A DNA stretch of 64,000 bases, from contig OZ004611.1 of the NCBI GenBank assembly GCA_963924565.1, forward strand, positions 21,452,001 to 21,516,000. Reading direction: 5' to 3'. Within the stretch, counting starts at the first letter, position 1. Each line of letters opens with the position of its first letter. This DNA is from Ascidiella aspersa (lineage: Eukaryota). Both the position numbers and the translations under genes were made by a program. The notes below the pieces were generated by a model, which saw nothing but the letters and a program-made list of their open reading frames with translations, did no database searches and was not told where the DNA came from. Of this stretch, positions 7,680 to 43,600 are shown in pieces.

Positions 7680-10600
7680 CTATGCGATACATTTGGAAAT
7701 CAATTAATGGATGCACTTTAAATGTACCTTCCAATTTAACGTGTTAGTTCAACAGCAAAAAAGTTGTGTTATTAGTTCGAACTCCGTTTTAAGTGTACCT
7801 TTTTAGTTATCTATTTACAGTAAGTTTGAAACCACTATTATCGGTTTGCATTTCAACCTTTATCACAACTGTTATATACTATAATTCACATCCTAAAATT
7901 CGCTTACAAAGTGAAACTCAGTCGTACAGTGATGAACATGCACGCCATGCCAATACAAAATCTACTATAATTAAAATAAATCACTTACCGAACAACCTAC
8001 AAATGAAAACATGCCAAGCATGTAGCATGCAGCTTGATAAAAAAAGCATTAAACCTGTAGGGATATACTTAACAATAAAAAAATGGGTTTATTTAATATA
8101 TAAAGAATTTTTTTTTAAATTGCATAAATAAACACAGTGACTATTCAAATTAGCCAACTGTGTAGATTACCGGTGATTTCTTGTATTTGTTTACTGCTTT
8201 CGCTAACTCTCATTTCCTCGCCAATGCTCCTAACGGCAAACCAATAAGCTGTACCACTCGCGAGTGACGTCACGTCTAGCGACGTCACGTTTGTGGACAC
8301 CGTGTCGGTGACGTCATCGCCGAGTGACGCGTAGTCAATCTCGTACGACGAGGCACCTGGAACATGTAAGGACTGAATCAACTTGAAAAAGCAAAGGCAA
8401 AAGAAATAGGAACAACATTCATTCGTACAAAAACAGAGAAGTACATCGTACAATCACTATAATGTTTTATAAGTTTATGATTAGTCTTGTAAGTATTTAT
8501 AAGTGTAAGTATATTGAATCCGAAAATAGGAGATGAGCTTGCAATTTAACTCGGAACATTTAGCTATCCTGCATCAAACCACGACCTATAGGGTTATCGA
8601 TATCACAGATCGAACGACATCCCCTCCATATACTCGATAGCAGCTGATGTTTTTTTATTACTCGGACGGTAGCGATTTTGCCAAAAAAATCCCGTTCCAA
8701 CAAATTTTCTACTCCACATGACAATAAAACAATTGGCTAAATAAACTATGATTAACAGTTTCTATTTACCCGAGCAGTGTTTTTTAACCGAAACGGGTTA
8801 TTTAAATATAGCCTACTTCTGAAACTACGACAGATCTTTACTGTTAGTGTACTTTTAGGAAATGTTTGCGGTTACTCAAAAACCTATACATTATTGTTCG
8901 AAAAAATTGCTATTTCGGATCAACTTATAGTTGCCTATTGTTCTAGGTGCGACCTCATATAAACAGCAATACTCAAACAAAAATTAAACCACGCTCAAAC
9001 CTGTAACAGGATTCCATCGCAATGACAGGCTGGTAGTGGAAACATTGTAAGCAACAACTCCTGATGGTGGCAAGGTAACTAAATATACAAAAACAATTAA
9101 AAAATGACGTACAAGTATAGTACCGGCAAAGAAGGTTAAACCAGGGGTCTAACACTGGGTTATGTAGACCCCCTTGAGAGTTTGGTGTACGATTAAAATG
9201 TTTAAAGGATTTTTTTAAAGAAAAGAGTAAATAAACTCTTTGGCGCCTTCTTATATTAAGACTTCATTTCAGTTTAACTTTTATTGAAACAAAAACAGCC
9301 AGTTTCTTAAGTCTACTTATTTCATGGCGTCAATTTATGTCGTCATTTCCACAAAATCCCGTGCTGACTCTGATCCACGCCGAACAAAAAATATTTAAGG
9401 TGGACTGCTAAAAAAAAGTTTGAAAACCCCTGGGTTACACAATCATTTTACACAAAGGTTTAATTTTGAGTAATGAACCAGGATATATCCAAAAATTATT
9501 TAAACAAACTATACAATCTTGATTTATTTCTAAGTTAATTAATTAATTGTTTTCATGCAATTTAAAAAAGATTAGCGTACTTTGTGTCTGTAAAAATGTT
9601 ATTTTTATCCAAAAAAAAAAGATTTTAAAATATATATAAAAAGGTTCTTTGCCAGATATATTATATCGATTCTTTCTATCGAACACCTCGTGAGAATTAA
9701 ATTAGAAATAAAAATTTCACCTGTTTGCAATGTCAGTAAATCTGAGCCCTTCTCGTTTCGCCGTCCCTTGATTCCGATTGAGAAAACGACGAATTCATAC
9801 CACGTGCCCGGCTCTAAGCCAATCACAGTCGTCCGCGTGTCATTGCCTTCTAGGGTCGACCAATTAAAATCGCTTCCACGGACGCGGTAAAGCAACTGAT
9901 AGCTCTGCGCACCTAAATGAAATAAATATTATTTTATTTGGAATGTCTTGACGATAATTCATGCGACCCGTCATAAAGCAGTTATACGAAAAGTTGTGCA
10001 TTTTGTCAAAAAAAAATTACCTGTAACCGGTTGCCATTCCAAGGTGCTTGAATTAGTTGTGACGTCAGCTATTTGCAATCCAGACGTAGTTGCGGGACCT
10101 TCGCGAAATAAATAACATTACACTAAATTGAAAACTGCATTGGACTATACGACATTCAGACGTAAAAATGCTGTTGAGTCAATATTCACTTGTTGTATAG
10201 TTATTAGTAATATTATACTTAAAACTTATGAATATCACGAATGGACTCACGAGTTGTTTCACGAGCTACGTGACTCGCCCTGCTAAGACCTCCGCCGGTA
10301 CCGACTGTTTGCAGGGTGAAAATGTAGCTGGTGCCAGATTGAAGCCCGTCGACTGTTAGTGACGTCATGTTCGTGCGCTGTACAGTTTGGACATGGTCCT
10401 GGCCCAGCGGATACAATGAGACAACGTAAGAAGCAGCTCCTGTAAAACAATAAAGTAAAAATGAATAGGATGTTTTGGGGTAAAAGTGTCACTGTGAGCT
10501 ATTGGGATGACCATATGAGATATATTGTCCTTGTTAATTTGCACATATTATTTAACGAACTTACGCAAGAACGACAGCGTACCCTTAAAAAAAGTAAAAA

Positions 10601-13600
10601 AAAACTATACTGGAAAAGGAGTCGCACTGATCAACGAAGACTATCTTATATTAGGAGTATACAACCACACAAACGTTGAACAATGCGCATGTTTAGTGGT
10701 TAAACCAATTTCAATAAACCTATATATGTAGCCTACATTTGGAAAAACATTTTACAATTTTAAAACTTTCTCTTTTCTTACCGGAAACACTACTCCATGC
10801 AAGAGATAACGATTCTTCCGTAACTGCTGTAAAGTTGATTGATACTGGGGGAAGAGGAACTGCAGAGAAATCCAAAAATGTTTACAAGTTGACCAGTTGT
10901 TCGCTTTTACGTTTTGTAACATAAATCACATTATTAAACAATCGTTTTACAATAGTTTTTAATTAGCTTTCAAAAGTATAATGCTTTATCAGCAACCATT
11001 AATCTGATTATGTCGTGCCCGTGCAATAGGTAGAGGCTATAGTTTGAATATGATTGTTTATGAAAAACGTATTATTCAAAGTGGTTTAGTTGTTCATTAA
11101 TATAGCTTTTAAAGAATTTAAAAACTTAAAGCAAACTGGGTCTGACGCACATTTCTCACAGGTTAAAAATGTTTCACAATTTAGTAACTATATTCAATAG
11201 TTAAATGATGAACCAGTCTATACCTGTCTGAAAGTTAACCTCTACAGATAGATTGCGGTTTATGGCTCCCAGTGATCCAATAGAAACGACGGTAATAGTG
11301 TACCAAGAACCTGGCTTTAATCCAATTGCTGTTGCCGTTGGCTTGTCTGCTTCTAGGCTAAGGGAGTCATTGTTGTGCAGTTCAAGCAAAAACATGAAGT
11401 AGCTGCTTGCACCTGTTTAAAAGTTTGATCTATTTTAAGTGTAACAGCCAACCGATTAAACCTAGGTGGCCGGGTGGGGTTAGGTTTTTCTTTGTTTATT
11501 TAGTGTATTTTTGGCGTTTTATTATTGCCTAAACTATTATATACAGTGACGGTTTTTAGGGTAACACAGGGAAATAAAAACAATTAATCATGATACATTG
11601 GATGGGCACTAACATTTCTATATACGATATGTTATACAGTACAAGACGAAAAACGGCGTTTTGCACTCGACTTTGGTTTCGCATTAGATTAAGACGCGTG
11701 ACCCAATTACTTAAAAAACACGCCGCTTCGAACAGTACAAAAACGATAATATCACTTACAAAAGGGGGGTAAGAACTTTTACCGCAACATGACATTTTCT
11801 TTTATTATTAATTTTACCGCCTTCACATTCGTTATTTACACTTATCGTTACTCCTGCATTGAAATAAATGTGGTTAGCTTACCTCGAGCTGGAATCCAAG
11901 AGGCTGTCATGGCGGTTTCGCTGACAGAGACCACGTTAATTACGTTGACAGGCTCAGGCACTGCAAAACAAGGGAGTTTAGCGCCTGATTAAGAAGCATA
12001 CATTTGGCCCTAAGTAATACTCCTAAAAGTTATTTGGTTAATCAATATGTGCGCGCTTATGATTTAACTTTATCTTATTTTACGATATTATACGTTTTAC
12101 CCAAGCCCCAGGGAAACATGTACCTATTTATATTTGCATTAGAACTATTCAGGCGAAGGTTATGTCCGATGAAATAGTCAATCCGCTGTTATTACGTGCA
12201 CAACATAAAAACGAAATTTAGTAAAGCTTTTGAGAAATATCGTCGTCAATGCAGAAAGATGAGTGAAAAATATGTAAGAGTCTACTTGATTTAAACTCGC
12301 AAATTTAAGGATAAAATTTGAGAGTTTTATAAAAAAAGTCGGGCCCCAACTTTTAAGTATTTCGGCTCGAAAAAAAAAAAACACAGTAAAAAAACGCTAA
12401 AATAAGTTGTTTTGAGTGCTTTGTGAAACTCACGTGTAGCGACGATTCTTGCTTCTCCTTTTTCGCTCAGCATGTTTCGCTCTCGTCCCACCGATTGTAC
12501 GCTGATCCCGTAGGCGGTGCCGGGTTGCAATGACATCACTGCTAGTGACGTCGACGGCGTGCTGATATTGCGAAGGGACTGGGTGCCGTTGGTGAATTGC
12601 GCGATGTGAAGAATGTACGAGGCGCCTGTGTGAAAAAAGAGAAAAAATACAACGTAATTCTTATACTTAATTGGTCAAGACATTTTCAAAATCGTTTCGG
12701 ATCAAATATTTTTTTATAAATTTTCGATAATTTAGCAAGGGAGCCGATACCCGATGCCAAGTGGTAGTATCGGCATCCGATACCAACCGATTCGATACTA
12801 AGTTAATGAAGTAATTTCGGCCATAATTTGCGATCCAACGCACAATTTTCTTGCAACGTATATTTTTAAAAGTATGTTAGGTTAACAACTTAAGGTAAGT
12901 AAACTTTTTAACACCAAATTTTTGCGTGATAACCTGGAAAAATTACATTTGAACATTTAAAGTCCATCTATTTCGCTTGTTTGAGTGTATTAGTGACGTC
13001 ATTTGGTATCGAATCGCGATACTTTATGTCTAAAATATCGGTCATCGGTATCGGAATAAAACGTCAAGTGTCGGACATCCCTAAAACATAATTATTAAAA
13101 AACAAGAATGTGATCTCGCCTTCGTAACATATGTACACATAATTACCTGTTGTTTCTTGCCAGGTCGCTTGGACCGATGTTGTCGTTATGTTGTTTAATT
13201 GAAGTTCGGAGGGAACCGCAGGCACTGTAGAAGGAATGCAAAGTTCGCGTTGGACTGGGGCCACTTAAAATGGTAATGACATTAAAATACACTTTTTATC
13301 GAATAAATTTGATATCGATTTTACTCTTTTCCCGACAAAGTAACAAATAGGACAGGCACGGATACTTAATACCGATACTAAACAAATACTTTATGGAATC
13401 GTTTACTTTAGCAATAAATATCCAAGACCTCTAAAAATAAACTTTAGAGGAAACACCTACGTTTAAAGGTAGTATACCATGTAAAAATATTTTTAAATGT
13501 TTGGTCTGGCATTCCTAGTAGAACCATTGTATCAATATCGGGTAAAACTACGCCATTTGTTTAGTAAAGACCTGTTTGTTGAAGAATAACAGGACTGGAA

Positions 13601-16600
13601 TTTTCACTTTTTCTTCCTTTCGAATCGATTGCATAAACTCGTATTTGATAAAACGAGCCGGTTGACAGGTTTTCCACCAAAGTGAAGTTATCTGTCGTCA
13701 TCAGATGTTGTGTGTTGTTGGAATTGAGGTAAAATACTTCAATAGCGTAGTCCGTTGCACCTGAATGAGATAAAAAACCAGAGCATATTATTGGAGCAAG
13801 CAGTTTTGCAACGTGTAGAATACATTTCTACACGTATAAAATAAATTGGGTATGGAGTTAGTTTGAAACTACCCTAGTTCGACTCCGGCAAAATTAATCC
13901 CGGCTTCGACTCTGCAGCCTGAGTAATGCATACAGGTTCAAAATTTTAACATCTTTTTGCCAGTGCCCACAACCGTATCTAAATCTATATATTAATACAA
14001 ACCACTTTCCGTAACGCTTATAGAACACATTTGTTTCTAAATCCAGGCATGATGGCAAAACAGTAATTGTCGAGTTTAGGTTTTTTAATTGTGATTTTAA
14101 TTTACGTTTTGTCAGAAGAAGTATATACAAGCACCACATGTACGTGTTTCCCGTCTCGCTCCTCTCCTAGGTAGCTCAGTTGGTGGGGAACGGTCCCGGT
14201 ATAACTGGAGGTCGTGAGTTCGAACCTAACTGCAGGCTAGTTAGCCTGCCCTGCTTGCATCATTTATCGACACATTGCTAGTCTTCGATGGCTTTCGGTG
14301 TACTATGATCGGTCAAAAAGGGCTAGACACAGTTGTTAAACACGTTTATGTGTTTGTATCTTTCAACTCAAGCAAGGGATAGACATTTTGGCTTTCTATG
14401 CGTTCTGGTTTGTGGTGGTAGGTAGGGCTAATCGTAAATCGAAATTACAGCTGTTGAACAATGGTGATTTACCTTTCACAAGTCGCCACTCTACCAGCAG
14501 TGTGGTGTTGCCCACTTCCTTTATGATAGGCTGATCGGGATTCGCCGGTACTGCAATAAGAAAAATAAAATTCGCAGTGTTTTCATCGCGTTGTGGGACA
14601 GACCGCATCTCGTTCTTTCGATAGAAAATTTTCTTTTCGATAAATTTTTTTTTGGTATATCGTCACATAAGTATAATGCAATACGAAAAAATTACTTAGA
14701 TTTCGCGTTAATTCGGTTAATTAAAAAACTTTTACAAATGTATGTTTATTAAACAAATAAAAGGTGGTAAAACACCTTCTATCTAAAAAAGTAAAAAAAA
14801 AACAGCACTCCAATGTTGTTTTTCGCCGTTACTCATTTTGAGGATAATTTTATAAAAGCATGTTTGTTGTAGAAATAACCACAATCAAATTAGAACAATT
14901 TGGACATACGACCTATTCATGGGCATTCTTACTTATGAGCGACTTTTACAATTGTCGTTTGGGATAATTTTGTAAAAGCATGTTTATTGTAGAAATAGCC
15001 ACAATCCAATTAGAGCATTTTGCGCATACGACCTACTAGCATCCTTACTTCAGTTTTGACTTTTTAACTGTTTGCAAGACTTACGCGTGGATTCCGCTAT
15101 GGCTTCGCTTTCCAGGCTGCGATGCATTTGCTCACCAACCGCCGTGACTGTAAAGGTAAATGGTGACCCCGAAGGCAGCTGCTGGAATAGAGTGGACGTC
15201 TGTGACGTCACGAAAACTTCTTCAGAATCGTCATCGGTCGATTTTATTTTTACCGAATAATTGGCGGCTCCTAAATAAAACATATTGATATTACTGAAGG
15301 TAATTTACAATGAAACGCTGAATTGTTTTAGGTGAATACAAAGATTTAATATATAAACTTGCTACCAGGCATAATACTTATCACAATGGCTAATTTGGAA
15401 ATTATTTTGTAATATAACATTTCGATAAGCTACACAGGTCGCCTTCTTTCAAGGTAAATTACACCGAATGTTCACAAATACAATGCATGACAAAATACAA
15501 GACAACAAAAAGAAAAACAAACACAGATTCAATTATGTAAAGTTATAAACTAATCAATATTTTAATTATAAACAAGCTAGTACATACATAATGTCCCCCG
15601 ATATATCATTAGAGAAAGTTTATTTAAAAAAAAGTATTTTTACTTAAAATTTTTGTTTGCTTTGGGTAGTTAGTTGTTACTAAAACTACTTACCTGAAAA
15701 TGTTAAATAGTATAGAACACTGTACTTCAACGTTAAAAAAGTGATAGAAATGTTGCTTACCTTGAACACTATCCCATTCGATTCCAATGCTTGAGTTACT
15801 GACGTGATACACAAGAATGTTGCTTGGCATAAGAGGAACTGCGAATATATCAAAAATTTAGTTAAATCTCAGATGTTTCGAAGCTTGACACATGGACAAC
15901 AGTCTTCGAACACTATAAACCAGTGGCTAATATTGCCTAAATTCACTGATAACAAACTAGTTACCGGTTTGAAATCTTGCTCTTTCGCTTCGCCCAGGAT
16001 TTGTTTTGTTTTTAACACCAACTGACGTAACCGTGACGTCATACCAAGTGCCTGTTGACAGTCCGACAATGTTAACGTTAGCCTCGCCAGCTTCCAGGAT
16101 TCTCGAATCGTTAGTCGAAGTGATGAACAAGATGTAAGACACAGCTCCTGAAACATAAAATTATAAACTTCAATATTGCTTGTCATACAAATGTTACATG
16201 TGCATTGCAACATGAATTTAAAGCTTGCATGGCTTACTAAATTTGCTATAGTTACGGCCATAGTTTAGTAACTGTTTTACATTTTTTCTATTCAGCTTAC
16301 TATTAAAAAACTACAGCCGTTGGATATAGACTACACCGATTTAATTAAAATTAAAAACCGTAGCCATTTAATGTTCAAATATAATAGTAAAACCTAGTAA
16401 CGACACTATAGTCGATTTGTTTGTAGTATTTACATTTTTTCGCGATTTAAAATAAAAGTGTATGATAACCAGTAAATCTGGATCAGTGAACATTTTTGAC
16501 AAAATAGATTTTAAGAGAATAAATAATTAGAAACTTTTTCAAATCGTGTTGTTCAGTGAAATTCAGATGACAAAAAGCCATAATGTAAACGACTTTAGGC

Positions 16601-19600
16601 TTTTGAATTTTCACCAAGAAAATGATTAACATCATACAATGAACACTTTTTATGTCTTGGCTGAATTCAAATCTCATTTTATGTCGTACCTTTCACTTCC
16701 TTCCAGCTCAAGCTAACGTCTGTGATCCCAACTTCATTGACGTTAGGTTTTTTAGGTAGCGAAGGCACGGTGGTGACCGTTACTTGTTCGCTTGCTTCAC
16801 TCAACCTGTTTTCTTCACCGACACTTTTCAATGCGAACCGGTAAGTCGTCCCACTCTTCAATCCCGATACAGCGCTAATAAGCTTGGTCGTTTCTATTAT
16901 AGCCGTTTCGTTGCTCTCAGCTGCGCCGTATTCGATAAGGTAGGAGGCCGCACCTGTAGCGTATTAGCACAAAAAATGGTTACATTTCAAATAGAAATCA
17001 GTGGACGCTATGTATAACAGAAAATACCGCGTGAACTTTAAGTCCAATGAGTGTGTTTAATTAAACGTAGACTTAACATAAACAGATTAAACCAGGGGTT
17101 CTTAGTTTTTTTTTACCGCGGACCCCTAATTTATTTTTCGCTTCGTGTGGACGGTAGTTGAGGAATATTCAAAGATGACGTCATACATTGACGCCAAAAT
17201 AAAGGTAAATTCCAGAAATCTGCTTATTTAGATCCAAAAAATCTGTTAGTTAAATGGAGTCCAATCAGTGCTGAAACGTTTTATTTTATATTTATTTTTT
17301 TTTCAAACTATTATGTTTGAAAATTGGTTACTCCTTGAAAATTTGGTTACTCCTCCTTAAATATACACTAACATTTCAATTAGGCCTTCATGAACCCACT
17401 AAAACTAGTTCACGGACCCCAAGGGATCCATGGCCCCAGTTTAAGAACCCCTGGATTAAACGAACTCACCAAATACTTCATTCCATTCCAAAATCAGAGA
17501 CGAAGTCGTTATATTTATTACGGTAGTTCCCGATGGAGCAACAGTAACTGAAATAAACACCAGCCATTATTGTTAACGCGTAAGTTCTTTGATCGAGCAT
17601 CTAAGTGCAAAAGTATTTTACCAGTTTGAAGTTGTATCTTGTCGCTTCCTCTCTCGTTTATCCGATCCTTGATTCCGACAGAGAAGACGACCAACTCGTA
17701 CCACGTGCCCGGCTCTAAGCCAATCACGTTCGCTACTGGCGACCTCGATTCCAATATTTGTGCAACGTCATCGGTTCCGCTAACGCGATAAAACACTTGA
17801 TATTTTAAAGCGCCTGAAATAAATAAATTGCAATTCACATAATTACTCTGTGAATGTGTATAGCTATTTTTGTCGGAGGTGAACCTACAACGTTTAACAT
17901 TAGTTTGTTAAGCATAAAAGCGACTAAACCTTGTGAAAATGTAAGTAAAATTGGTTATATGAGAGTTTTCGTGTCACCAAAGCATTTTCTCGTAGCACTC
18001 GGGCAACCTGTTTACCATACGATCTTAATAGTGATAAGTTTGAGTTTTTCTAAACACAGTTTCCGTTTAACTAGATTATGATTTTTATCGTCGGACTTTA
18101 TTATAACGTCGGACTAGATGATAATTTTTTTTCGTCCGGAAGTAGAGACGTTTATAATACTGCATTCGGTTTGAAACCAGTTTCAATTATAAATGTGTTT
18201 TTTTGTTTCTGTGTTACCTCTCACAGATTGCCAACGAAGATGCGTCGACCTTGTTGTGACGTCATCAATTTCAACACTTGACGGAGTTTGTGGAACTGTA
18301 CAACAAAGCTAGGTATTAAAATAGCAATGACGTCATCATCAGTTCATGTATAAAACAACTACTTACGTGTCGATTCTTGTATTTCCCTACTCAGGGCACT
18401 TATTCGACTGGAAGTTCCAACTGTTTCGATTTGGATGACGTAGCTGGTTCCGGGGAGAAGATTTTCCAACAACGATGACGTCATGTTGACGTCAACTTTG
18501 CTGCGTGTCTGATTGTTGTCGACGGAATAATAGAAAACCCTGTAGGATTTCGCACCTGTAATAAAGTCTTAGTTTAACTTCTGGATTTAAAATATTTGGT
18601 TTCGAAACCGATTTTCGGCGGAATTACAAAGACAAAGGCACTAATGTAAACAGCATCAGGCTTTCCAATTCTGAATAACAAGAGTCGAATAAATCATAAA
18701 CAACATTTTATGAAAGAAGATTTTCGTAGCTACAATAATTTTCAATACAGAGGTGATATATTTTACCAAAGTAATATGACATTACGCCATAGTAGGTATA
18801 GACACAAAATAAAACGTTCTTATTGTGTACTAAAAATTCAGCAAAATGTTAAGAATTGGTCAGCAATTTTTATTACCGTAGGATGCATTCCACAAAACTT
18901 CAAGCGACGTCGTTGTTATACGATCGATTCTAACGTTACTTGGCGGCAAAGTTTCTGAAATCAAGTGTACGTTGTTAAAGCGAGTTAAAATTTGGTGGTG
19001 CAGGAAATTATATTTTTACCGGTTTGTACCGACGTCCTTTCGCTTTGCAGTGGATTGGTTTTGTTATCGACGCCGACTGACGTAAGAGTGACGTCATACC
19101 ACTGACCGGGATTTAAATCGGAAACGGTGATTGAGGATTGGTTGGTTTCCAATTCAAAGGACACGTTGTCGTATTTGACAAAAACAATATATCGAATTGC
19201 ACCTAAACATTAAAGTAATGATATTTAAACAAATAAAGATTTTTATGTTGTAATAAACAGGGCTGCGAAGTCGGTTAAAAATAACTCGGGTACTACTCCA
19301 GCCAAACGTGCGATTTTGTCGAGTCCTACTCTACAGCCTTTATTTTACACATTTACGTAACTTAAAGGTGGATATACCGGTACAGCAATCCACTCATGGG
19401 GGTGTCATTTAATTCATCCACCCACAATACATTGTTAAATATATTCAAGCTTATATTCTATTCCACCTTTAAAATATACAGATTGTAGCACTATCAGTTT
19501 CGAAATTTTGTCCTGCACATGCGCACGTCGGGCTCAGGACTCAGTCTTACGTGGGCATACTCGACTCTCGAATATGACTTCAGCAAAGCAAAACGGACTC

Positions 19601-22600
19601 CTTCGAGTCCCGAGCCCTGATAATACAACCAGCTGTGAAACAATACCTTTGACATTGTTCCATTGTAATCCAACGGACGTGGTGGTAATTTCTGTGACAT
19701 CAGCTTTATTTGGCAATGAAGGTACAGTGGTGTCTCTGATCTGAACGCTTGCTTCACTTATTCTCCCTTCGTCACCAATACTTTCAACCTTGAACCAGTG
19801 CTCGGTTCCACTTTCCAATCCAGTGACGTCATTCAGAGTGACGATGGTTTCGATGACGTTGGTGATATTGTCGTCGATCGAACCATATTCGATTAAGTAC
19901 GAAGCAGCACCAAAAACAACATCCCATTCCAACGTTAGCGACGATGTTGTTATGTTGAATATCTTGAGATTGGTTGGAGCAACAGTTACTGAAAATATGT
20001 ACATGTATTAAGTATAATGAATAATGATGATTAATTAATAAGTCATAGTTCAACATTGTTAAACGGGTTACAGATTCGGATAGAAAGCCTAACATTTGTT
20101 TGTTTAAATTGTATCTATGGTTGTTTTATGATTCATATGTCAGCAAAAATGGGGAAATATACTACAAATGGAATAAGTTGGGTATTTTTTAAATTCGATA
20201 GTTTTTTACTTGTTTGAAGTTGTATCTTGTCGCTTCCCCTCTCGTTTCGCCGATCCTTGATTCCGACAGAGAAGACGACAAACTCGTACCACGTGCCCGG
20301 CTCTAAGCCAGTCACATTCGCTTCTGGCGATCTCGATTCGAATATTTGTGCAACGTCATCGGTTCCGTTGACGCGATAAAATACTTGATATTTCAGCGCA
20401 CCTGGAAAGACAGATTTAATGATATCGCACTGCAAATTTATATACTTAAACATTTCAAAGGAGAGCGTGTTTCGCACCTTTTACATGTTGCCAACTTAAA
20501 GACGCCGAGGTAGTAGTGACGTCATCAATATCGACGCTCGAAGTAGTTTTTGGTTCTGAAATGAAAACTCGCATCAATTTCACAATATTTTATTTAAAAG
20601 ATTAGCTAAATAGAAAAAAAAATCTTACTGGTTGCTTCTCTTATCGGACTGCTTCTAACGCTAGACCTCTCCGACGTTCCAATCGTTTCAATTGTGATGA
20701 CGTAATGAGTACCTGATCTAAGCTTTGCCAATATCACTGTAGTAAGTGGAGTTGAGACATTTAGGAATGTTTGGTTATGATCGACGTCACGGTAACGGAT
20801 GACATACGACTTTGCACCTAAACATTTCAAAAAGGTTAATTCATATTCAGTCAAGCAACCACTCCAATTAAAAGACAATTGCGGAAGCGAAAATAAATAT
20901 GTTACTCTCTAAATGTTAAACACAGGTTTTGTACTTTACCGAATGATGCATTCCAAGCAAGTTTAAGTGAGCTCGTCGTGATTTGGACAACGTGTATATT
21001 ACTGGGTGGCAACGGTTCTGAAAATAGTTAAACAGGTTGTAAGGTTGCACGTTCAGAAAAAACTTCTTTATTCCTAACTTACCTGTTTGAACCGAAACCT
21101 TTTCGGTTCGCAGTGGATTTGTTCGGTTCTCAATGCCAACTGACGTAAGTGTGACGTCATACCACTGACCGGAAGTCAAACCAATGGCAGTTAAAGACGT
21201 GCCGTTTGTTTCCAATGTAAACGTGAGGTTGCCAAACTTGATAAAAGCAATGTAACTTAGAGCGCCTACAATACAATATGGCGTTAGGGCAATTCATATA
21301 GTTATAATTGTGGCAAGTAAAAGTGTTTACCCTTCACAGCGTTCCATTGAAACCCGATTGAATCAGTTTCAATGTAATTGATTTCCGGTTTATTTGGCAA
21401 TGAAGGGACTGTTGTGTCTTGGATCAGAACGCTTTCGTCACTAATTCTTCCTTCGTTTCCAATGCTCTTAACCTTAAACCAGAATTCAGTTCCGCTATTC
21501 AGTGCAGTGACGTCATTTGATACCCAGGTCGTTTCGATGACGTAGATGTCGTTATTATCAGTTGAACCGTATTGAATTAAATACGAAGTGGCTCCGAAAA
21601 CAACATCCCATTCCAATATTAGCGACGAAGTTGTTATTTTCGATATCTTGAGATTCGTTGGAGCAACAGTTACTGAAAATATAATGATGCTTACAAAGCT
21701 AGAATATATTATTTAATATATTGAGTGTAAAGACAATTTTAAAATCATTAGATAAGTTGGCTTACCAGTTTGAAGTTGTATCTTGTCGCTTCCTTTCTCG
21801 TTTCTCCGATCCTTGATTCCGACAGAGAAGACGACCAACTCGTACCACGTGCCCGGCTCTAAGCCAATCACGTTCGCTTCTGGCGATCTTGATTCGACTA
21901 TTTGTGCAACGTCATCGGTTCCGTTGACGCGATAAAATACTTGATATTTCAAAGCGCCTAAAAAGAAGATTTAATGTTATGGCACTGATTAACACAAACG
22001 TTTTATCTGCACACTTTGTAGTTACCTTTCATTGGTTGCCATCGCAATAACGCTGACGATGTTGTGACGTCATCAATGTTAACGCTGGATGTTGTTTGCG
22101 GTCCTTAATGACAAAGAACATATTCGTTTCGAAATCAATAAATTGTTTGATAATACAAAAGTTAACTGTTACGCGGAATGTATGAGAACCACAGAATATT
22201 TCAATGAGGGTTGTCTTAATATTGTAAAAGATATAATAAAATATTACAACAGCACAATTATTTTGGGCAAAATAAATACACTCTTTAAATAATTATTTTT
22301 AATGCACTACAAAATATTTACTTGTTGATTCCTTTATTATTTCACTTTGAGCGCTCGACCTTCCAGATGTGCCAATGGTTGTGATTCTGGTGACGTATTC
22401 TGTTCCGGGTGTGAGATTTTCCAATAACGATGACGTCATGTTTGTTGTAACATTAAACATTGTCTGGTTATCATCAGTGGCGTAATACCAAACCACATAT
22501 GACTGGGCACCTTGAAAAAAAAACACAATCAAATATTTTATACGATAAAACGAAGCATGTAATCAAATTTAATACAAAATATTAAAATCTTTTGTCCACT

Positions 22601-25600
22601 CAACTTACCGAATGATGCATTCCAAACAGCACTAAGCGATTTTGTTGTCGTTTCCACTATTTGTATGTTACTTGGTGGCAAAGGTTCTGCATAAAAAATA
22701 TTTATTATAGTATTCCAAGGGCAGTTGTTTGCTTTATTAGGGAAATGTGTATCTCACCTGTTTGAACCGACGCTTTATCGCTGCGCAATGGATTTGTCTT
22801 ATTCTCGACGCCCACGGATGTAAGCGTGACGTCATACCACTGACCAGGTGTTAAATCAATCGCAGTGACCGATGTTTGATTTGTTTCCAATGTAAAGGTT
22901 GTGTTGTCGTACTTGATGAAAGCGATGTAACGTTCAGCGCCTAAATATCAATGTTTTGATTGTACAATAATGTAGGAATATTAGGTATTTGTGAATGTGG
23001 TACCTTTTACATTATTCCATTGCAAACCAACCGACGTTGTTGTAATTGCTGTGATTTCGGGTTTGTTTGGTAATGAAGGAACAGTTGTGTCTCGAATTTC
23101 AACGCTGGCTGCGCTAATTCTTCCTTCGTCTCCAACACTTTTAACCTCGAACAAATATTCAGTTCCGCTTTCCAATGACGTCACTTCATTCAGTGTCAAG
23201 GTCGTTTCGATCACCTTTGTACTGTTGTCATCAACCGAACCATATTCGATTAAATATGAAGCCGCACCAAAAACCACATCCCATTCCAAGATTAGCGACG
23301 ATGTTGTTATGTTGAAGATCTTGAGATTGGTTGGAGCAACAGTTACTGAAAAATACAATTATATTTCGTTATAGACCATTTTCTATAACTAAATTTAAAC
23401 GAAAGATAACTTGAACTTTCTGAATCTCTACAACCTTAAAAGTTTCTATGTATTGAAAACTCAAGAGTAACAAAAATTAAACTTACCAGTTTGAAGTTGT
23501 ATCTTGTCGCTTCCTCTCTCGTTTATCCGATTCTTGATTCCGACAGAGAAGACGACCAACTCGTACCACGTGCCCGGCTTTAAGCCAATCACGTTCGCTT
23601 CTGGCGACCTCGATTCGTATATTTGTGCAACGTCATCGGTTCCGTTGACGCGAAAAAATACTTGATATTTCAAAGCGCCTACAAGAGAAGATTTTATGTT
23701 ATCGCATTGATTTACACGAAAGTTTTATCTTCACACTTCGTAGTTACCTTTCATAGGTTGCCATCGCAATAACGCTGACGATGTTGTGACGGCATCAATG
23801 TTAACGCTGGATGTTGTTTGAGGTCCTGGATGACACAAAACATATTTGTTTTCAAATCAATAAAAGGTTTGATAACAAAAAAGTTAACTGTTACGATGGA
23901 TTTATGAGAACCGAACAAAGTTATGTGGGTTGTCTTAATCATGAAAAGATATAATAAAATAATACAACTTGATAATTATTTTAGGCAAATTAAACACATG
24001 TTGTAAATCAGGGGTTCCCAACCTTTTTTACCCAAAAAAAGTAAACTCAAGATCAAGAAGTAGCTTTTTGCTGTACTATAGTTTTTTGTTTTGTTAAATC
24101 TTAGTTTATTTATTTTGTTAGAGTGGAGTAGACTTAGAGATGACAAATTAAAAAAATTATAATTTTTAAATTTTCTTATGACCCCCTAGGGCCTAGGGGG
24201 ACATAGCCCCCAGGTTGGAAACCCCTGCTTTAAATACTACTAAGTTCTTTAAGTGTACTGCAAAAATATTTACTTGTTGATTCGTTTATTATTTCACTTT
24301 GGACGCTCGATCTTCCAGATGTGCCAATGGTTTTGAGTCTGATGACGTATTCTGTTCCGGGTGTGAGATTTTCCAAAAGCGATGACGTCATGTTCGTTGT
24401 AACATTAAACATTGTCTGGTTATCATCAGTGGCGTAATACCAAACCACATATGACTGGGCACCTTGAAAAAAAAAAAACAATCAAATATTCCATACGATA
24501 AAACGAAACACGTAATCAAATTTAATACAGAATATTAAAATATTTTATCCACTCAAGTTACCGTATGATGCATTCCAAACAGCACTAAGCGATTTTGTTG
24601 TCGTTTCTATTATTTTTATGTTCCTTGGTGGCAAAGGTTCTGCATAAAAAATATTTATTATAGTATTCCAAGGGCAATCGTTTACTTTATTACGGAAAAC
24701 TGTATCTCACCTGTTTGAACCGACGCTTTATCGCTGCGCAATGGATTTGTCTTATTCTCGACGCCCACGGATGTAAGCGTGACGTCATACCACTGGCCAG
24801 GTGATAAGTCAATCGCAGTGACCGATGTTTGATTTGTTTCCAACGTAAAGGTTGTGTTGTCGTACTTAATGAAAGCGATGTAACGTACAGCACCTAAATA
24901 TCAATGTTTCGATTGTACAATAATGTAGGAATATTAGGTATTTGTGAATGTGGTACCTTTCACATTATTCCATTGCAAACCAACCGACGTTGTTGTAATT
25001 GCTGTGATTTCGGGTTTGTTTGGTAATGAAGGAACAGTTGTGTCTCGAATTTCAACGCTGGCTGCGCTAATTCTTCCTTCGTCGCTAACACTTTTAACCT
25101 CGAACAAATATTCAGTTCCACTTTCCAATGACGTCACTTCATTAAGTGTCAAGGTCGTTTCGATCACCTTTGTACTGTTGTCATCAACCGAACCATATTC
25201 GATTAAATATGAAGCAGCACCAAAAACCACATCCCATTCCAACATTAGCGACGATGTTGTTATGTTGAAGATCTTGAGATTGGTTGGAGCAACAGTTACT
25301 GAAAAATACAATTATATTTTGGTACAGCATAACTCACCATTTTTAATACCTAAATTTGAACGAAGGATAACTTGAACTTTCTGAATCTCTACAACCTTAA
25401 AAGTTTCTATGTATTGAAAACTCAAGAGTAACAAAAATTAAACTTACCAGTTTGAAGTTGTATCTTGTCGCTTCCTCTCTCGTTTCTCCGATCCTTGATT
25501 CCGACAGAGAAGACGACCAACTCGTACCACGTGCCCGGCTCTAAGCCAATCACGTTCGCTTCTGGCGACTTCGATTCGAATATTTGTGCAACGTCATCGG

Positions 25601-28600
25601 TCCCGCTGACGCGATAAAGCACTTGATATTTTAGAGCTCCTATATAAAGAATACAATTTTAACATGATATTTTTTTAATTTTGTGTTGTGTATGACAAAA
25701 CAAGTTATATATTAATAAGTTTTTGTACCGATAGTTTAGTGATATATTTCATACATGATTTGTAAGTAGAAAGTAATACCTTTCATTTGCTGCCAGCTGA
25801 TCAAAGCAGACCCAGTCGTGACGTCATCGATTAAAACGACTGGCGTAGTATCGGGAACTAAAAAATAAATACCGTAACCAATGGTCAGTTTTTCTTTTTT
25901 TGAAAATCATTTTGCCAAAATCGCTTTACTAAACTTACGAGTGGTTTCGTTTAGTTGACCGCTAGGAGCGCTCACGCGACCGGAAGTGCCGATTGTCTCC
26001 AAAGTGATGACGTAAGCGCTTCCCGGACTTAGGTTTTGCAAAACCAGTGACGTAACATTCGTTGTTTGGTTCATAAAAGCGCTGTCTCCTACTTGATAAT
26101 ACCGAACGACGTATTTTTCTGCTCCTGCAAGTAATAAACATGACATGTACATTACATTGTACAATGTACTTCCGCGATGACAAGATTTAAAAACACAGAA
26201 AAACCCGAACAGTTGGAATTCACCTGTCTCCTAAATCAAAATTTAAACAAATCAATGCAAAATTGTTCTAGTTACCTTGCGATGCATTCCATTTCAAGTC
26301 AAAACTCGTCGTTTTGATCTCTGTTATCTTCAGAGCACTGGGTGGCAGTGGTACTGGGAGAAAAACATTGCAAATTTTTTTAAATACATTATACCCTTTG
26401 GGTAACGCAAGTATTTTACGGAATGCTTGAGCCAAGTTGACTTAATTTAAGAAATACTGTATATATGACAAAAAAACTTGAAAAAAAAAAAAAAAAAATT
26501 CTGTTCTGACAAAAAATGTATTGAAAAGAAGATATGACAAGATGAGAAGATCGACATGATATAGATTAGGACGTTTCGTTACGAACTTGTATCATTTAGT
26601 TAACGAATTAAGACGTTAATGACATTGACCTTTTTGGCTCTGCAATTTATTATCAAGCTACATTACATCCGTGTATAGTGTACAAAAAAAGATAACATAA
26701 TCCATTATAGTTTTAAAAGTATGCAAAGCCAAGTGTCATGTTCGCCTTATTTTTACCCATTTTAAATTGCCAACTACCTAAACGTTTGAAATCCCTAATT
26801 AGAAGAGGCTTTACCCGTTTGAGTTTGAGTGAAAACCGACGCATTGGAGTTGGTGACATCGAGATCACCAATTGATGTGACAAAGAACTTGTACCACATT
26901 CCTGGAGACAACTTGTCGATAGTAATGTTCGACTGAGTAGTGGTAAGGTTATCAATGGATGCATCTGATAACGATCGAACGTGCACCTTGTATGACTTCG
27001 CTCCTGAAATAGTAGAAGACTTATTACTGAACTAATTCATTTGATATACAAATGAGCATGGCTGTAACCTAGTCCTCAAGTCGGACTGACCAAAGATTTT
27101 TATGGTAGACTGACAAAAAACGCCTACTGAAACATGTAGGCCTGAGGATTTCTCATAACAGTAAGACAAAAAGTAGCCTTCTGTAAAATTTGAAATCACG
27201 ACATCGGTATGGACTAACAATAGGGTGAAAATTAATTACTTTGTCGCACACAAAAGACTAAGAAATTAACATTTGTAAACATTTGTGTATTACGAACATA
27301 TCGAAATATTCTTACCTTTCACTTTTTCCCAGTTGATTGTAACGCTTGTAGTGCTTGCAGACTGAACTGCGATGCTTTTAACATTTCCCGGCACTAAAAC
27401 ACACAACATAGTTAAACCACCAAACCTATACAACTGACTGTCTATGGCAGAATTTAAAGAGCCAAGGACATTTAAATGCAACTTAACTTCTAGCCAGGAG
27501 AGATTTCAGATATGCAAAATGATTCGTGTTGTAACTAAGTATAATCGATATTATCGTATCAAAGCCGAAACCAAAACCCATTTAGCAGTATCAGTACTCG
27601 AACAATGTTAGATAGACTGGTTCAGTGTAGATGCGATACCACATTAATCTAAAAACTTCAGCCATGGTTTGCCATTTTTCACTTGGAAAGTATATTTAAT
27701 CTTGTTGGCGGATCAGGTCCGCTGTTCTTTTGCCTACAATATCGGGTTTGAAATAAGATACCACGAGTCGGACACACTCACACGTTGCTCTTATAGCTTC
27801 GCTGCTACGTTCGCTGACGAGGGAATCGACGAAGCCCACCGCCTTTATCCAGGCCGTGTGAGCGGTTCCCGGCTCCAGTGACGTCATATGATATGACGTC
27901 ACGTTGACCTTTCGCGTCACGATTTCGCTAGATACGCCGTCAAGTGTGTGCGACACGGAGATAAGGTACGACGAGGCCCCTGAAAGAATAATGTTTTATT
28001 AAAAAAATGCTTTTCAAATTGTTTGTGTAAGTAAATTTGGAATATGGAGCGTTGCGAAACTTTAAAAGGGATGGATGATGGGATGATTTTTAGAAAAATT
28101 TCAACTTTTTACCTGTTACATCATTCCAGGAAAGCTCCATTGAGTGAACAGACACCTTGCTGAATTCCACATTCGTCGGGAATTCTGGCACTGGACAGTA
28201 AAGATGAAATAAAACGTTTAAGATCCCGAATTGTCAAAGTATTTGAGCTGAAAGGTCTTTTGTTTTACATGAAAAAATCTTATAAAAGTTTGAACCTTTA
28301 AAAAAAAGTAAGTACGTTTGTCATTAAACTCGTAACCGAGTTAACTGTAAAGTCTAACAGCCTGTTTATAAATTACATCATATTACCGTATGATGCATTT
28401 TTGCAGTAATAAAAAAAAAATTGAACCGGCCAAAGTCGCAAAAAGTACGGCAATTAAACACGAACCAGTCTGCTGTGCCGTATATGGACTCCCATCCTCG
28501 CTCTCACGGCCTTTTTCGTCGACGGCATAGACCCGAAATCGGTAGAACAAACCAGCATTGAGGTACGCCACCACAATGTTGTCGGTCGGCCATTCCAACT

Positions 28601-40600: not shown

Positions 40601-43600
40601 CGAGACAACCACGTGACAAAACGCGTGAGCAAGATCGCCTTGTTAATCTTTACATTAACATCTCAAACAATACTTTCTAACACTTTTGTTGGTTTTAGTC
40701 TTGGTTGCGAACTGAAATTTAAATTGCTACTATACTTTTATTTTATGTAGTCGTAAATTACCTAAATGTATTGCTAGCAATAAATATCATTAAAACAAAG
40801 AACATGTTTGTCAACCATGATAAATACGTTACCAAACACTAAAGAAGCTAGATGTGCAGACATTATAACAAACCTTTTACAATGCTCCATGAAATTTTCA
40901 CAGACCTTGTTTCAATTGAGTCAATAGCAACATTGCTCGGAATTGCTGGTCCTAAATAGTAAATAACAAGTGTTAGAAAATAAAGAGGCAAGAAAATTGA
41001 ACTTACCTACTGAGAAATCCTTTGGGGTATTAGAAACTTATGGTAATCAAAACATTTCATCTATTTCAAAAAAGACTGTTTTTTATCGTTAATAACTTTA
41101 GAATTATTTTGAACTAATAAATAATTCAAATAGTTTAACAAACACGGTAGGTTTAACTCAGGAGTTGCTTGAATTACAACTCTCTTATTTTACCAGTTTT
41201 AAAAATAAGAAATTAGTAGGTTTAATTAATACACAAATTTTCACATGTCTGTGAAAATGAGTGACAGAAGTTTCTAGAACAAAGTTAAACACCATATAAA
41301 CCTTAGTACATTTATTTTATACACTTACTACTTTTGTATTGTCTGAAACCAATACTCACAGGGAAGCGCTTTCAGTTTACTAATCTCATCTGCTATAGTT
41401 AAAAGTGTTATTTGTAAGATGCTAGTGTTACGTATTAGTTTAAACAGCGTGGTCCAACTGCAGTCCATGGTGGCATTTTTTTGAATAGGCAACAAAACGA
41501 CGTGTTACAACAGTTACATGGTAAACACTATTAGCAAGTTTTAGGTGTTATCTTCAACATCTACCCAGTGGTTCTGTGGGGCACGAGCAGTTCCCCACCT
41601 TTTTCAGCCTTCGGCTCAGTAAAAGTTATATAAATATGCCGCGGCACACTTGATTTAAAATGCACCTTTTAAGAAGTATAACTGGCTCATATTAGCCTGC
41701 TCTGTAAGGCAGTGGTTCTCAACCTTTTATGGCTTGCAGCACCCCTTAGAAATAATAAAAAGTAGCCTAAGTAAAATCACTAGAATGTCACAATAAACGG
41801 AACTAAAACAACACATATCAACTCTGCGCAACGTGGGAAGTTTTAAAGTTGGCAAAAATCACTATTCTTAAAAATTCTCAAAACTCTCTCGGCACCCTTG
41901 GGTATTATAAATGGCATCACGGATGAAAATCACTGCTGTAAGGCAAGATAATTATTATAATATATTCATTTAACTAACAGATAGTGCAGATTGAATTATC
42001 GAATGTTTGCCTCTTCTTGCCCAACCTATTGATTCTTTTTTGTAGAATGACCACAAAAAGTAGTCTCTAGAGCAGGGGTTACCAACCTGCGGTACGAGTA
42101 CCACTGGTGTTACGCGAAGTTTTTCAAGTTGGTACGCGAGTAGCTTTTGATTTTTTCACGAAAACCTGGATTTACAACTTTTATGTTTTGTTTTTGTGTT
42201 TTTTTACAAAAAAAAATCCCGAAGCCTATTCATTGTTACGCAACTATTTCTGCTGTTTCGCACAATTACGTTTCGTATGTCAACAAGGGACACATCTGTT
42301 GGTTTAAAAAGTTGCACAACGCTGTGGGACAGTAGGCGTTAATTATGTGAAATGATTGCTTTTGATAGATATCGTCTTCTGTTTTATATCTTAAGCTACA
42401 AATAACATTGAATAGCGAAAAAAATAGTTGTTTTACAATGGTGGGTCTTAACCGGGGGGCTCCAAGCAATTCTTGATTCGGCGCAAGCTCTACTCCAATA
42501 TTTAACTTTTTATAATGATTTTATCAGTTCCATGTTGCGTAAGTTATTAAATCTGCATGCTTATATGTTGTCCTATGCATAACATTAAAATTACACAGGT
42601 TTAGAAAAGTAATTGAAGAAAAATGTTCATAATTTTGCGATTTGCGAACTTTGAGGCTATGTTTTAATGTAATTTCTCGAATTTTGGGACAAAACTTGCT
42701 ATTTATTACGGGCCATTTGGAGTATGTTGTAGTCAGAACAGTAAGATATGGTTGAAGAAAAGTTAAGTTGTGCACCATGCCGCCCTCTCCACAAACTGTG
42801 TTTTGTCAATTTCAACAACGCAAGCTACAAATTACTTTTTGTGTGCATTACTAATTGGGAGGAACTCAGACATTTTGCAATTTATAGTGTCATTTGCGGT
42901 AAATAGCCTTTGCATTGTGTGTCTCACACCTTTTCAAACACGATTTATATTTTCATGCAATGTTTTATTTTTTCATGACTGTCAAAAAGCTCGATGCAAA
43001 CCAATATATCGAGCCCAAGCAACTTTTCTGTCTCTCCCAAATTAAAGTTTAGGCAATACAAACCAAATAAACGTTATTTTTTTCGCGATTCGGGCCACGA
43101 AGATTTAACTTTTCTATTTTCATGCTGTCTGATTGAAAGATATTTGAAAAACACCAAATTTATTTTAGTAATATTGTTTATTATCCAAGGGGGCGCAGGA
43201 AAATTACCAAAGGTGGGGGAAGGGAAGAAGTGGTACGCATGGCAGTACAGACCGTCCAAGTTTGTACGAGATCGTAAAAAGGTTGGGAACCACTGCTCTA
43301 GAGGCACACTATTGTGTCGCCGTACACAGTTTTAATACTATTTTAAAATCTGCATGCTATTTTTTATCTAGGGCGAAAAATTGCCCACGGGTGAATGTCA
43401 GTCAGACCACACTGAGTTAAAATGTATTAACGTTAAACACTTACCGCTGAAATTCCGCCGCGTAGAGTTTTGTTACCACGTCGCGATACGTAAGCTTTCG
43501 TTCAACATTCGTTCAACGCTGCAGTTGGTCGAATGGAATGTCCTTCAGTTGAACTGACTTGCCAAGCATAGTCAAGCCACAATACACACCCGTGCAATCG

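Follow-up and report, generated by a model that had tools for sequence, protein, structure and literature searches.

The VWA-FN3 gene and its ascidian orthologs

The window, a 64,000-nt stretch of Ascidiella aspersa DNA, is the middle of one giant minus-strand VWA-FN3 gene whose ends both lie outside it, at about window position 100,330 and about -31,150 (Table 1). Both ends are collinear with Phallusia (tblastn). The gene encodes a signal-peptide-like start, a VWA domain (Pfam) and ~97 two-exon FN3 domains, with the stop after the last FN3 and no membrane anchor. Each FN3 domain is built from an exon A of 75-78 nt and an exon B of 180-222 nt, all in phase 1. The curated exon model holds 86 clean two-exon FN3 domains (D1-D86), with 173 exon units and 7,752 codons free of stops. 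All 86 modelled domains are FN3, and the array contains no Ig domain. Titin also carries a kinase; no Ig or kinase family is among those listed by Pfam for the orthologs. There are 6-8 cysteines per whole protein. The encoded chain, roughly 9,100 aa, is predicted to be secreted, and at the FN3 pitch of about 3.4 nm per domain it would be about 330 nm long. A 40-domain block, D31-D70, is rich in glycan sites and missing from the Phallusia protein; the 3.5-kb intron at its 5′ edge was searched for a hidden FN3 exon and none was found. Reads from ~6% of RNA run X7 covered only intronic repeats and traces close to the tetramers, with no exon joints, which has no bearing on expression or splicing.

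Orthologs are found in Phallusia mammillata (CAB3265300.1, 5,021 aa, database name 'RPTP eta-like'), Clavelina lepadiformis (LOC143466065, isoform X1 of 6,315 aa, database name 'titin-like') and Ciona intestinalis (LOC100178140, 3,607 aa), the last of which begins without a VWA domain. The A. aspersa gene belongs with them to a family of ascidian VWA-FN3 giants sharing a signal peptide, VWA, a long alternating FN3 array, a helical block and three terminal FN3 domains, all collinear; the signal-peptide-like start is seen in A. aspersa and two orthologs. Collinear domains are 33-62% identical to those of Phallusia. FN3 totals are about 97 in A. aspersa, 65 in Clavelina, 51 in Phallusia and 38 (partial) in Ciona. 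D31-70 and D76-81 have no counterpart in the Phallusia protein, in which no internal pair is 50% or more alike; Clavelina, with a second d-h block, has amplified an a/b-like pair instead. The helical block matches no Pfam family, gave no Atlas hit at 0.9, and has a low-confidence single-sequence model (pLDDT 46).

The database names of these proteins are not backed by their features. Beyond the signal peptide, the three orthologs contain no hydrophobic stretch, and they lack a PTP motif, which argues against the receptor tyrosine phosphatase R3 of the Phallusia name; a PTP search gave no C5 match among the matches listed (150 of 156). Collagens XII/XIV have a collagen triple helix, and tenascin-type proteins have EGF repeats and a fibrinogen globe; membership in these groups was rejected, as the Pfam listings of the Phallusia and Clavelina orthologs include none of these features. 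What emerges is a misnamed ascidian family of predicted secreted proteins of 5,000-9,000 residues. No publication on the gene or family was found in searches of largely open-access literature.

Table 1. Features of the VWA-FN3 gene in the window
Feature	Position	Strand	Basis
VWA-FN3 gene, middle part (D14 through exon A of D77)	493..63966	-	curated exon model
D16-D20, d-e-f-g-h block, orthologous to Phallusia domains 19-23	54586..61153	-	
gB of D19, chimera: first 70 nt diverged, last 122 nt (56550-56429) homogenised	56429..56620	-	
Intron, 3.5 kb, at 5′ edge of D31-D70	40952..44448	-	
Octamer 1, D31-D38 (a-h)	32469..40951	-	exon model, identity, tree
gB of D37, homogenised	33349..33540	-	
Octamer 2, D39-D46 (a-h); h structurally part of tetramer array	25035..31874	-	
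gB of D45, homogenised; 5′ boundary of youngest duplication	25448..25639	-	
Youngest tandem duplication, 25642-23482 vs 23681-21761	21761..25642	-	exon + intron homology
Four a-f-g-h tetramers, D47-D62; equally readable as five f-g-h-a units, D44-D63	16768..25034	-	
Fused 342-nt exon hA+hB+aA, two introns lost	24957..25298	-	
gB of D49, junction copy	23487..23678	-	
Fused 342-nt exon hA+hB+aA	23004..23345	-	
gB of D53, homogenised; 3′ boundary of youngest duplication	21766..21957	-	
Fused 342-nt exon hA+hB+aA	21331..21672	-	
gB of D57, homogenised	20210..20401	-	
Fused 342-nt exon hA+hB+aA	19647..19988	-	
gB of D61, homogenised	17622..17813	-	
Fused hB+aA exon of 264 nt, an intermediate with one intron lost	16690..16953	-	
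Octamer 3, D63-D70 (a-h)	8171..16767	-	exon model, identity, tree
gB of D69, partly homogenised only	9721..9912	-	

Domain classes, parity and the copying unit

The original prediction described a nested architecture of two, four and eight domains in eight recurring classes (a-h), and the exon model, identity matrix and lag peaks confirm it in order and coordinates. Within D31-70, identity peaks at lags of 4, 8 and 12 domains (49.5, 50.7 and 46.4%), with odd lags at about 26%. Mean identity within classes is 55% for a, 39% for b, 48% for c, 32% for d, 39% for e, 45% for f, 74% for g and 56% for h; between classes it is 20-34%. In a quick IQ-TREE search on 89 columns, the expected clustering by class holds for a, e, g, h, b and c, each on one side of a branch (support 95, 98, 96, 99, 83 and 77), and fails for d and f, which are not single groups and need 2 and 3 changes. 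All a-h labels together require 11 changes on this tree, against a mean of 43.4 for shuffled labels; not one of the 200 shuffles reached so few. At 61-54 kb, the d-h block has solid e, g and h, a weak d, and D18 outside f. Since expansion of FN3 arrays in four-domain blocks is described as a general trend, with two and four as common sizes (Björklund et al., 2006; PMC1553488), the 2/4/8 periodicity alone is ordinary.

Odd and even domains alternate, as had been claimed. For 79 of 86 domains, the best match is a domain of like parity; a parity profile trained on domains outside D31-70 places 83 of the 86 correctly, the exceptions being D11, D30 and D85. Leave-one-out assignment is correct for 37/39, compared with a mean of 20 and a maximum of 29 in 60 random labelings. 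Alternation extends to 36/36 Phallusia domains (4-39) and 40/41 Clavelina domains (16-56), and the blocks without a Phallusia counterpart are 40 and 6 domains long (D31-70, D76-81). As judged from these sequences, the alternation is ancient and common to the A. aspersa gene and its orthologs, which supports the ancestral FN3 pair that had been put forward as the ancient unit. Clavelina isoforms X3-X6 lack 2, 6, 6 and 8 domains, each junction beginning at the end of a homogenised exon; they were kept out of the parity evidence because mis-mapped reads could yield such junctions.

The tetramers had been attributed to crossover between a and e. The a-to-f junction did arise from a register shift of four domains, but no a/e chimera was found. 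The tetramer a exons are a-like up to their last 30 nt (63-67% to a63 vs 30-33% to e43) and the f exons resemble f; the junction therefore maps to an intron. It lies outside g. Class a groups with g, not with e, in the quick IQ-TREE search.

Intron-loss markers (the fused exons of Table 1) and the limits of the youngest duplication identify the copying unit as gB-h-a-f-gA (A and B denoting the two exons) instead of a-f-g-h. The exons of the youngest duplication are 93-99% alike and 5/6 of its inner introns 86-98% alike. Its 5′ limit is gB45, where the upstream exon falls to 65% and the adjoining intron is unrelated, and its 3′ limit is gB53, where the downstream intron falls to 34%. No other duplication is recent enough for its limits to be mapped, and those that gave rise to the earlier tetramers and octamers cannot be linked to g. 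In the fused exon at 19647, the first ~110 nt are 89-97% like D46 and the rest 68-81%, a second, smaller, conversion-like tract. A word-index search with the fused exon matched 7 distant FN3 proteins only. Read depth at 21.6-23.7 kb in other runs was too noisy for tetramer copy number, and contigs of run X2 leave a hole at 17.9-19.0 kb; such holes are not proof of absence.

Near-identity confined to the second exon of g

A stronger signal, missed by the original prediction, lies in exon B of class g (gB). Six full copies (D37, D45, D49, D53, D57 and D61) are 91-95% identical, and D19, 23 kb from D37, shares this near-identity only over its 3′ 122 nt (113-116/122 nt against the other six, compared with 34-37/70 nt in the 5′ part). 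The D19 breakpoint is sharp (37/70 vs 116/122; Fisher p 5e-12, for a breakpoint picked after seeing the data). D69 matches the homogenised copies at 81-86/122 nt, with an 80-nt core at 84-88%. It is only partly homogenised at 8 kb from D61, and D19 is more so at 23 kb from D37; simple distance does not explain the degree of homogenisation. Introns flanking gB are unrelated immediately past the splice sites, except inside the youngest duplication, where the intron downstream of the D49 copy resembles that of D45 and the upstream one that of D53.

Between octamers 1 and 2, gB is 92-96% identical in nucleotides and the remaining 15 exons are 37-60% identical; silent sites between octamers are saturated in every exon except gB. 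Over 11 pairs, four-fold sites differ at 30/165 in the 3′ part of gB vs 387/599 in gA, f and h. Same-amino-acid codons, identical at a baseline of 1128/2775 (41%), are identical between D19 and D37 at 33/36 in 3′ gB, 4/10 in the 5′ part and 4/14 in exon A. Identity of this kind at silent sites, limited to one tract of paralogs that have diverged elsewhere, is the pattern of concerted evolution by ectopic gene conversion. At the protein level only, paralogs are also closer than orthologs in the tract and not in its flanks: D19 shares 37/38 residues with its paralog D37 and 30/38 with its Phallusia ortholog, and the neighbours d, e, f and h of D16-20 pair with Phallusia 19-23 at 99/98. Variants are mosaic among copies, with 18/36 informative site pairs failing the four-gamete test, although these failures (9 sites) could partly reflect recurrent mutation. 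GC3 of gB is 0.55, not raised. A transposon or dispersed-repeat origin was rejected, as the 8 genome matches all lie within the VWA-FN3 gene. A second-species run (X4) gave only 4 pieces, three at depth 2-6 and one of them identical to the A. aspersa genome, too little for a between-species comparison. Nine a-like domains of Clavelina X1 share 79-92% identity over their last 48 residues and 20-56% over exon A; at the protein level, Clavelina appears to repeat second-exon homogenisation in a different domain.

The motif segment of gB ranks first of 40 ortholog pairs against Phallusia (79% vs a mean of 52%). Among the six full copies, 16/31 variant codons are non-synonymous, some within the motif, and per-copy constraint is therefore moderate. 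The near-identity of gB in seven otherwise diverged copies of this giant, predicted-secreted VWA-FN3 gene is probably due to selection on the motif that lets the copies keep recombining, and the likely mechanism is gene conversion sustained by selection, together with unequal crossover.

Exchange with cDNA copied from the gene's own mRNA as template, instead of DNA-DNA pairing, is an unlikely alternative source of the pattern. The youngest event carries its introns and so took place at the DNA level, and the intron beside gB itself is lost in 0/8 copies. A cDNA template would account at once for tracts limited to exons and for precise intron loss, but decayed introns give such tracts equally well. 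All five exons with precise intron loss are found just downstream of g exons; hA, next after gB in the mRNA, has a high-identity tract between D46/50 and D58, with the intervening intron mostly unrelated.

Silent-site conservation across 39 kb could also mean that the gB nucleotide sequence itself is selected, as a splicing element, RNA structure or overlapping enhancer, with no exchange at all. This is improbable: non-synonymous variants in gB are as numerous as synonymous ones, residues unlike those of Phallusia, Clavelina and D69 (e.g., V at position 71) are common to all seven copies, and the domain homogenised in Clavelina is a different one. Three gB copies do fold with z -1.2 to -2.3; however, 2 of 4 non-g control exons fold as well (z -2.2 and -1.7) and D69 has z +0.8, leaving no specific signal of RNA structure relative to these controls.

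Selection on the periodicity itself, as in the titin-like molecular ruler originally proposed, would require a match to a periodic partner and is very improbable here. Parity is maintained in three other species and copies of the conserved g motif stand 4 or 8 domains apart across D37-D69, but g spacing is irregular within the gene (18, 8, 4, 4, 4, 4, 8) and between species (28 in Clavelina; a single g in Phallusia), and FN3 totals vary as given above. A predicted secreted chain lacking Ig and kinase domains lends the ruler no support either, and two- and four-domain units are the usual expansion sizes by the account in PMC1553488. Although near-identical paralogs invite mis-polishing, an assembly or polishing artefact is barely credible, given that an independent study's raw reads stack 6-7-fold on gB with distinct intron loose ends (depth about 33-39 on 3′ gB vs 4-6 on a single-copy neighbour; about 6-7 copies in run X6) and that a 1,797-base contig of run X2 carries the same D19 breakpoint.

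Proposed course of events and comparison with known systems

From the gene structure, classes, parity, gB-confined silent-site identity and boundaries of the youngest duplication, we infer the following steps. By the time of the split from Phallusia, an odd/even FN3 pair would already have been expanded into an a-h block. Duplication of an f-g-h-a stretch over the octamer boundary may have followed, placing the new junction in the intron that follows a; the loss of two introns, one after the other, would have come later. The F-G hairpin of g (GIKDRRNE motif) is posited to be a conserved surface, likely a ligand-binding site, and would hold the g exons above the identity required for ectopic recombination. 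Non-crossover outcomes would homogenise the exon, and crossover outcomes would copy or delete whatever sits between two g exons. Crossover between g exons, as proposed here, would produce steps of four and eight domains and preserve parity, so that a ruler is not needed. The protein is most likely a long extracellular matrix or mucus filament with predicted basic ends and an acidic shaft, to which the 40-domain block would contribute length, N-glycans and additional g sites.

A bolder version can be offered only tentatively. Protein-level selection on one FN3 hairpin may have made a 192-nt exon into a self-sustaining recombination hub, homogenised and setting the 4/8 step size, and this may have arisen twice, in g and in the a-like domains of Clavelina; the glycan-rich 40-domain block might then be an old alternatively spliced cassette, giving a short or a ~doubled filament.

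Arguments about the unit size of super-repeats in giant proteins usually draw on protein similarity and nothing else. As Björklund et al. (2006) point out, locating recombination hotspots calls for exact duplication boundaries, which are difficult to obtain (PMC1553488). Here one boundary pair is legible from intron homology and falls in the same exon as the homogenisation, tying surface-motif selection, gene conversion and copy-number steps together in a testable way. A recombining hub would account for parity as well as the 4/8 periodicity, and the analysis points to the g hairpin as the likely functional site of the family. The individual ingredients are all known from other genes, and the nested repeats are of a familiar sort; the surprise is therefore moderate.

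One such ingredient is found in the variable exons of clustered protocadherins, in which, as with gB, gene conversion is described as keeping one ectodomain homogeneous amid divergence in the remainder of the repeat (PMC3966226, on Noonan et al., 2004). Protocadherin exchange takes place between large alternative exons of a cluster, whereas here it involves small exons within one coding chain, the tract takes in two thirds of a domain, and a copy-number change has its limits in that exon too. The kringle IV copies of human LPA are reported as young, with exons 98-100% alike (PMC4378929); in A. aspersa, the likeness is kept in one exon of repeats that predate a species split and are saturated elsewhere. 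Titin A-band super-repeats also form a giant chain with higher-order FN3 periodicity, but titin is described as sarcomeric, with mixed Ig and FN3 domains matched to thick-filament spacing (PMC7427331), in contrast to a predicted secreted chain with an FN3-only array and a variable period. In the accounts of dumpy and spidroins (PMC5100051, PMC9779670), whole units, often introns included, are homogenised, and multi-domain duplication of FN3 arrays likewise involves whole units (PMC1553488), whereas in this gene homogenisation affects 1/16 exons per octamer.

The gene and its relatives

The window is part of a 33.9-Mb contig in a genome of 308.6 Mb and was analyzed with 100 kb added on either side. 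Exons were modeled by a splice-site and HMM scan followed by manual curation, which discarded 19 candidates that overlapped others or were incomplete and brought in 16 in-frame pieces, comprising segments of fused exons and two exons missed by the scan. On the minus strand, A exons of 75-78 nt alternate with B exons of 180-222 nt, all in phase 1; joined, they form 86 FN3 domains (D1-D86, in gene order) whose 7,752 codons contain no stop. The open frame and the collinearity of the orthologs support this predicted gene model. Upstream are a signal-peptide-like start and exons for a VWA domain (Pfam PF00092; two exon pieces match at E 1e-5 and 1.2e-3), whose metal motif looks degenerate, with Leu or Val at the last serine position. 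D86 is followed by five further divergent FN3 domains, then by a helical block that has a basic furin-like site, and by three terminal FN3 domains, for an estimated ~97 FN3 domains and ~9,100 residues. D1-D86 contain one RGE and no RGD. A Pfam scan gave no family for the helical block, and an Atlas search gave no hit at 0.9.

A profile was built from 54 of the window's 63 B exons, and its search of 1.84 billion representatives placed the Clavelina lepadiformis (LOC143466065, isoform X1) and Phallusia mammillata (CAB3265300.1) proteins on top (1,650 and 1,529 bits; next, 904), with the Ciona intestinalis protein (LOC100178140) fourth. Phallusia is the closest ortholog, at 33-62% identity per orthologous domain. 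The database names of the orthologs (phosphatase-like, titin-like) have no backing in the sequences, which show no transmembrane segment or PTP motif. We found no paper on a VWA-FN3 ascidian family. The protein most likely acts as a long filament, secreted as part of a matrix or of mucus; in the Phallusia and Clavelina proteins, an acidic shaft is flanked by basic terminal domains. Elsewhere in this genome, tyrosine-phosphatase domain exons form large clusters on contigs C6 and C8 (most of 156 matches), which suggests strong expansion of that family.

Features in and around the gene (window positions; L-numbers are flanking pieces)
Feature	Position	Observation
C2-domain-like exons, minus strand	L006:2088-3643, L005:9747-9995 (~113,700-117,600)	upstream of gene; presumably synaptotagmin-like
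Gene start	near 100,330	
Fused D5B+D6A	76117-75854 (L002)	upstream of window
Fused D11B+D12A	66875-66609 (L001)	upstream of window
D21-27 and D71-77	54027-48061 and 7679-1009	alike at 27-40%, offset 50; each set follows an h domain
b/c intron, octamer 2	29755-30176	two short tandem arrays, units 41-42 nt
Tetramer region	17000-26400	short introns, median 93 nt vs 449-525 elsewhere
D60-61 exons	17938-18983	contig depth 3.5 and 0 in run X2 (another sample) vs at least 59 in every other bin; possibly a deletion allele or filter effect
Intronic high-copy interspersed elements	11643-11777, 12740-12773, 14207-14242, 17126-17433, 19258-19458	very high read depth, loose ends
D76-81	3527-2597 to about -6380	six domains after D75, none in Phallusia protein
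Stop codon	near -31,150	
Helical block	L013:3794-5654	~200 residues, conserved in 4/4 ascidians; R-x-K-R site in three
CUB-like exon-sized piece	L014:2158-2370 (~-37,630 to -37,840)	downstream of stop; presumed CUB, probably of the next gene

Repeat classes, parity and age of the block

The original prediction is confirmed as an observation and partly supported as an interpretation. Its super-repeat architecture of eight domain classes, a-h, is borne out, with octamers at D31-38, D39-46 and D63-70 and a-f-g-h tetramers at D47-62; in phylogeny, six of the eight classes form single groups, and d and f are weak. The alternation of domain types is real, extending beyond the recent repeats and to the orthologs. 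In odd domains an aromatic residue precedes the F-strand tyrosine and the F-G loop has R-x-N; even domains have an acidic residue close to the C-terminus. Contact between these residues across domains is plausible. According to Björklund et al. (PMC1553488), FN3 repeats are mostly gained in fours and repeats in general in twos, so a periodicity of 2, 4 and 8 is expected.

The Phallusia protein aligns domain by domain with D1-30, D71-75 and D82-86, without D76-81 and D31-70, the latter being exactly the interval of the original prediction. A tree built on the concatenation of d, e, f and h puts D16-20 together with Phallusia 19-23 (99/98), the three octamers branching outside this pair; monophyly of the four Ascidiella blocks, a group chosen with the tree already in view, is rejected (AU p 0.011). 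From this placement, the octamers likely predate the split from Phallusia, in which they were likely either lost from the protein or are removed by splicing; its record gives no contig and presumably derives from a transcript. D73, 75, 77 and 79 group together (91), a separate pair-wise expansion, and the likeness of D21-27 to D71-77 is likely an older large duplication, in Phallusia too. N-glycosylation sequons are frequent in the block: D31-70 average 2.23 per domain and the 24 octamer domains 2.08, vs 0.70 in the other 46 (Mann-Whitney p 1.5e-6, domains not being independent) and 0.95 in Phallusia. The Ciona ortholog is sequon-rich along its whole length, which weakens any special reading of the block.

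A homogenized exon and the growth of the array

Between octamers 1 and 2, exon B of g is 92-96% identical in nucleotides vs 37-60% for the other 15 exons, g exon A included. Six copies (D37, 45, 49, 53, 57, 61) are 91-95% identical across 192 nt; in D19 the match is limited to the final 122 nt, and in D69 it is partial. Four-fold sites of the exon differ at 30/165 vs 387/599 in same-pair controls (pairs not independent), and D19 and D37 share codons at 33/36 shared residues vs a 41% baseline. The sequence has eight matches, in this gene only. D19 is nearer its paralogs than its Phallusia ortholog in this segment, and residues common to seven g copies are absent from the ortholog. Such a pattern is the hallmark of concerted evolution. 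The segment also ranks first of 40 for conservation against Phallusia (79% vs 52%) and is recognizable in Clavelina (26/38), so constraint on it at the protein level is old.

In the youngest duplicate pair, likeness runs from the very start of gB45 (exon B of D45) to gB53 and takes in the introns: five of six inner introns are 86-98% alike, and the remaining one is 38% alike with a length difference. The upstream exon and intron and the downstream intron are not alike. D49 has its downstream intron from the D45 type and its upstream intron from the D53 type, as expected for crossover between g exons. This is the one duplication mapped; boundaries of older ones are not mappable. The nearest relatives of the tetramer domains (a63 and a39 for a, f44 for f, h62 and h38 for h) fit an origin by tandem duplication of an f-g-h-a stretch spanning the octamer 2/3 boundary. 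Tetramer a exons are a-like to the end and f exons mostly f-like, which places the new junction in an intron; there is no a/e hybrid, and the predicted unequal crossover between a and e is not upheld. Exons hB and aA are fused in D46, 50, 54, 58 and 62, and hA also in the first four. Intron loss gives the order of events, with markers consistent if units are counted from g rather than a; it is not confined to tetramers, since D5B+D6A and D11B+D12A are fused too.

The process uniting these direct observations (structure, classes, parity, homogenized exon, duplication boundaries) is probably selection on the g hairpin that would keep its copies recombinable, with conversion homogenizing g exons and crossover adding or removing steps equal to the distance between them, always an even number. 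Exchange templated by cDNA is an unlikely alternative beside introns that are shared within the youngest duplicate. Selection on the g exon at the nucleotide level is less probable still. The titin-like ruler of the original prediction has slightly less to recommend it: titin's role depends on a matched filament (PMC7427331), a situation that does not apply here. Assembly artefact is scarcely credible, as another study's raw reads stack 6-7-fold over g exon B with differing intron ends, and the D19 breakpoint recurs in a contig of another sample.

Clavelina X1 offers a parallel: nine a-like domains alternate with diverged partners. At the protein level, identity among these nine is 79-92% over the last 48 residues and 20-56% in the A exons (36 pairs). 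The Phallusia and Ciona proteins have no internal domain pair at 50% or more. Our literature search found no paper on exon-level conversion in FN3 super-repeats. Domain-limited conversion is described in clustered protocadherins (review, PMC3966226), identical exons across kringle types in LPA (PMC4378929), and homogenization of whole units in dumpy and spidroins (PMC5100051, PMC9779670).
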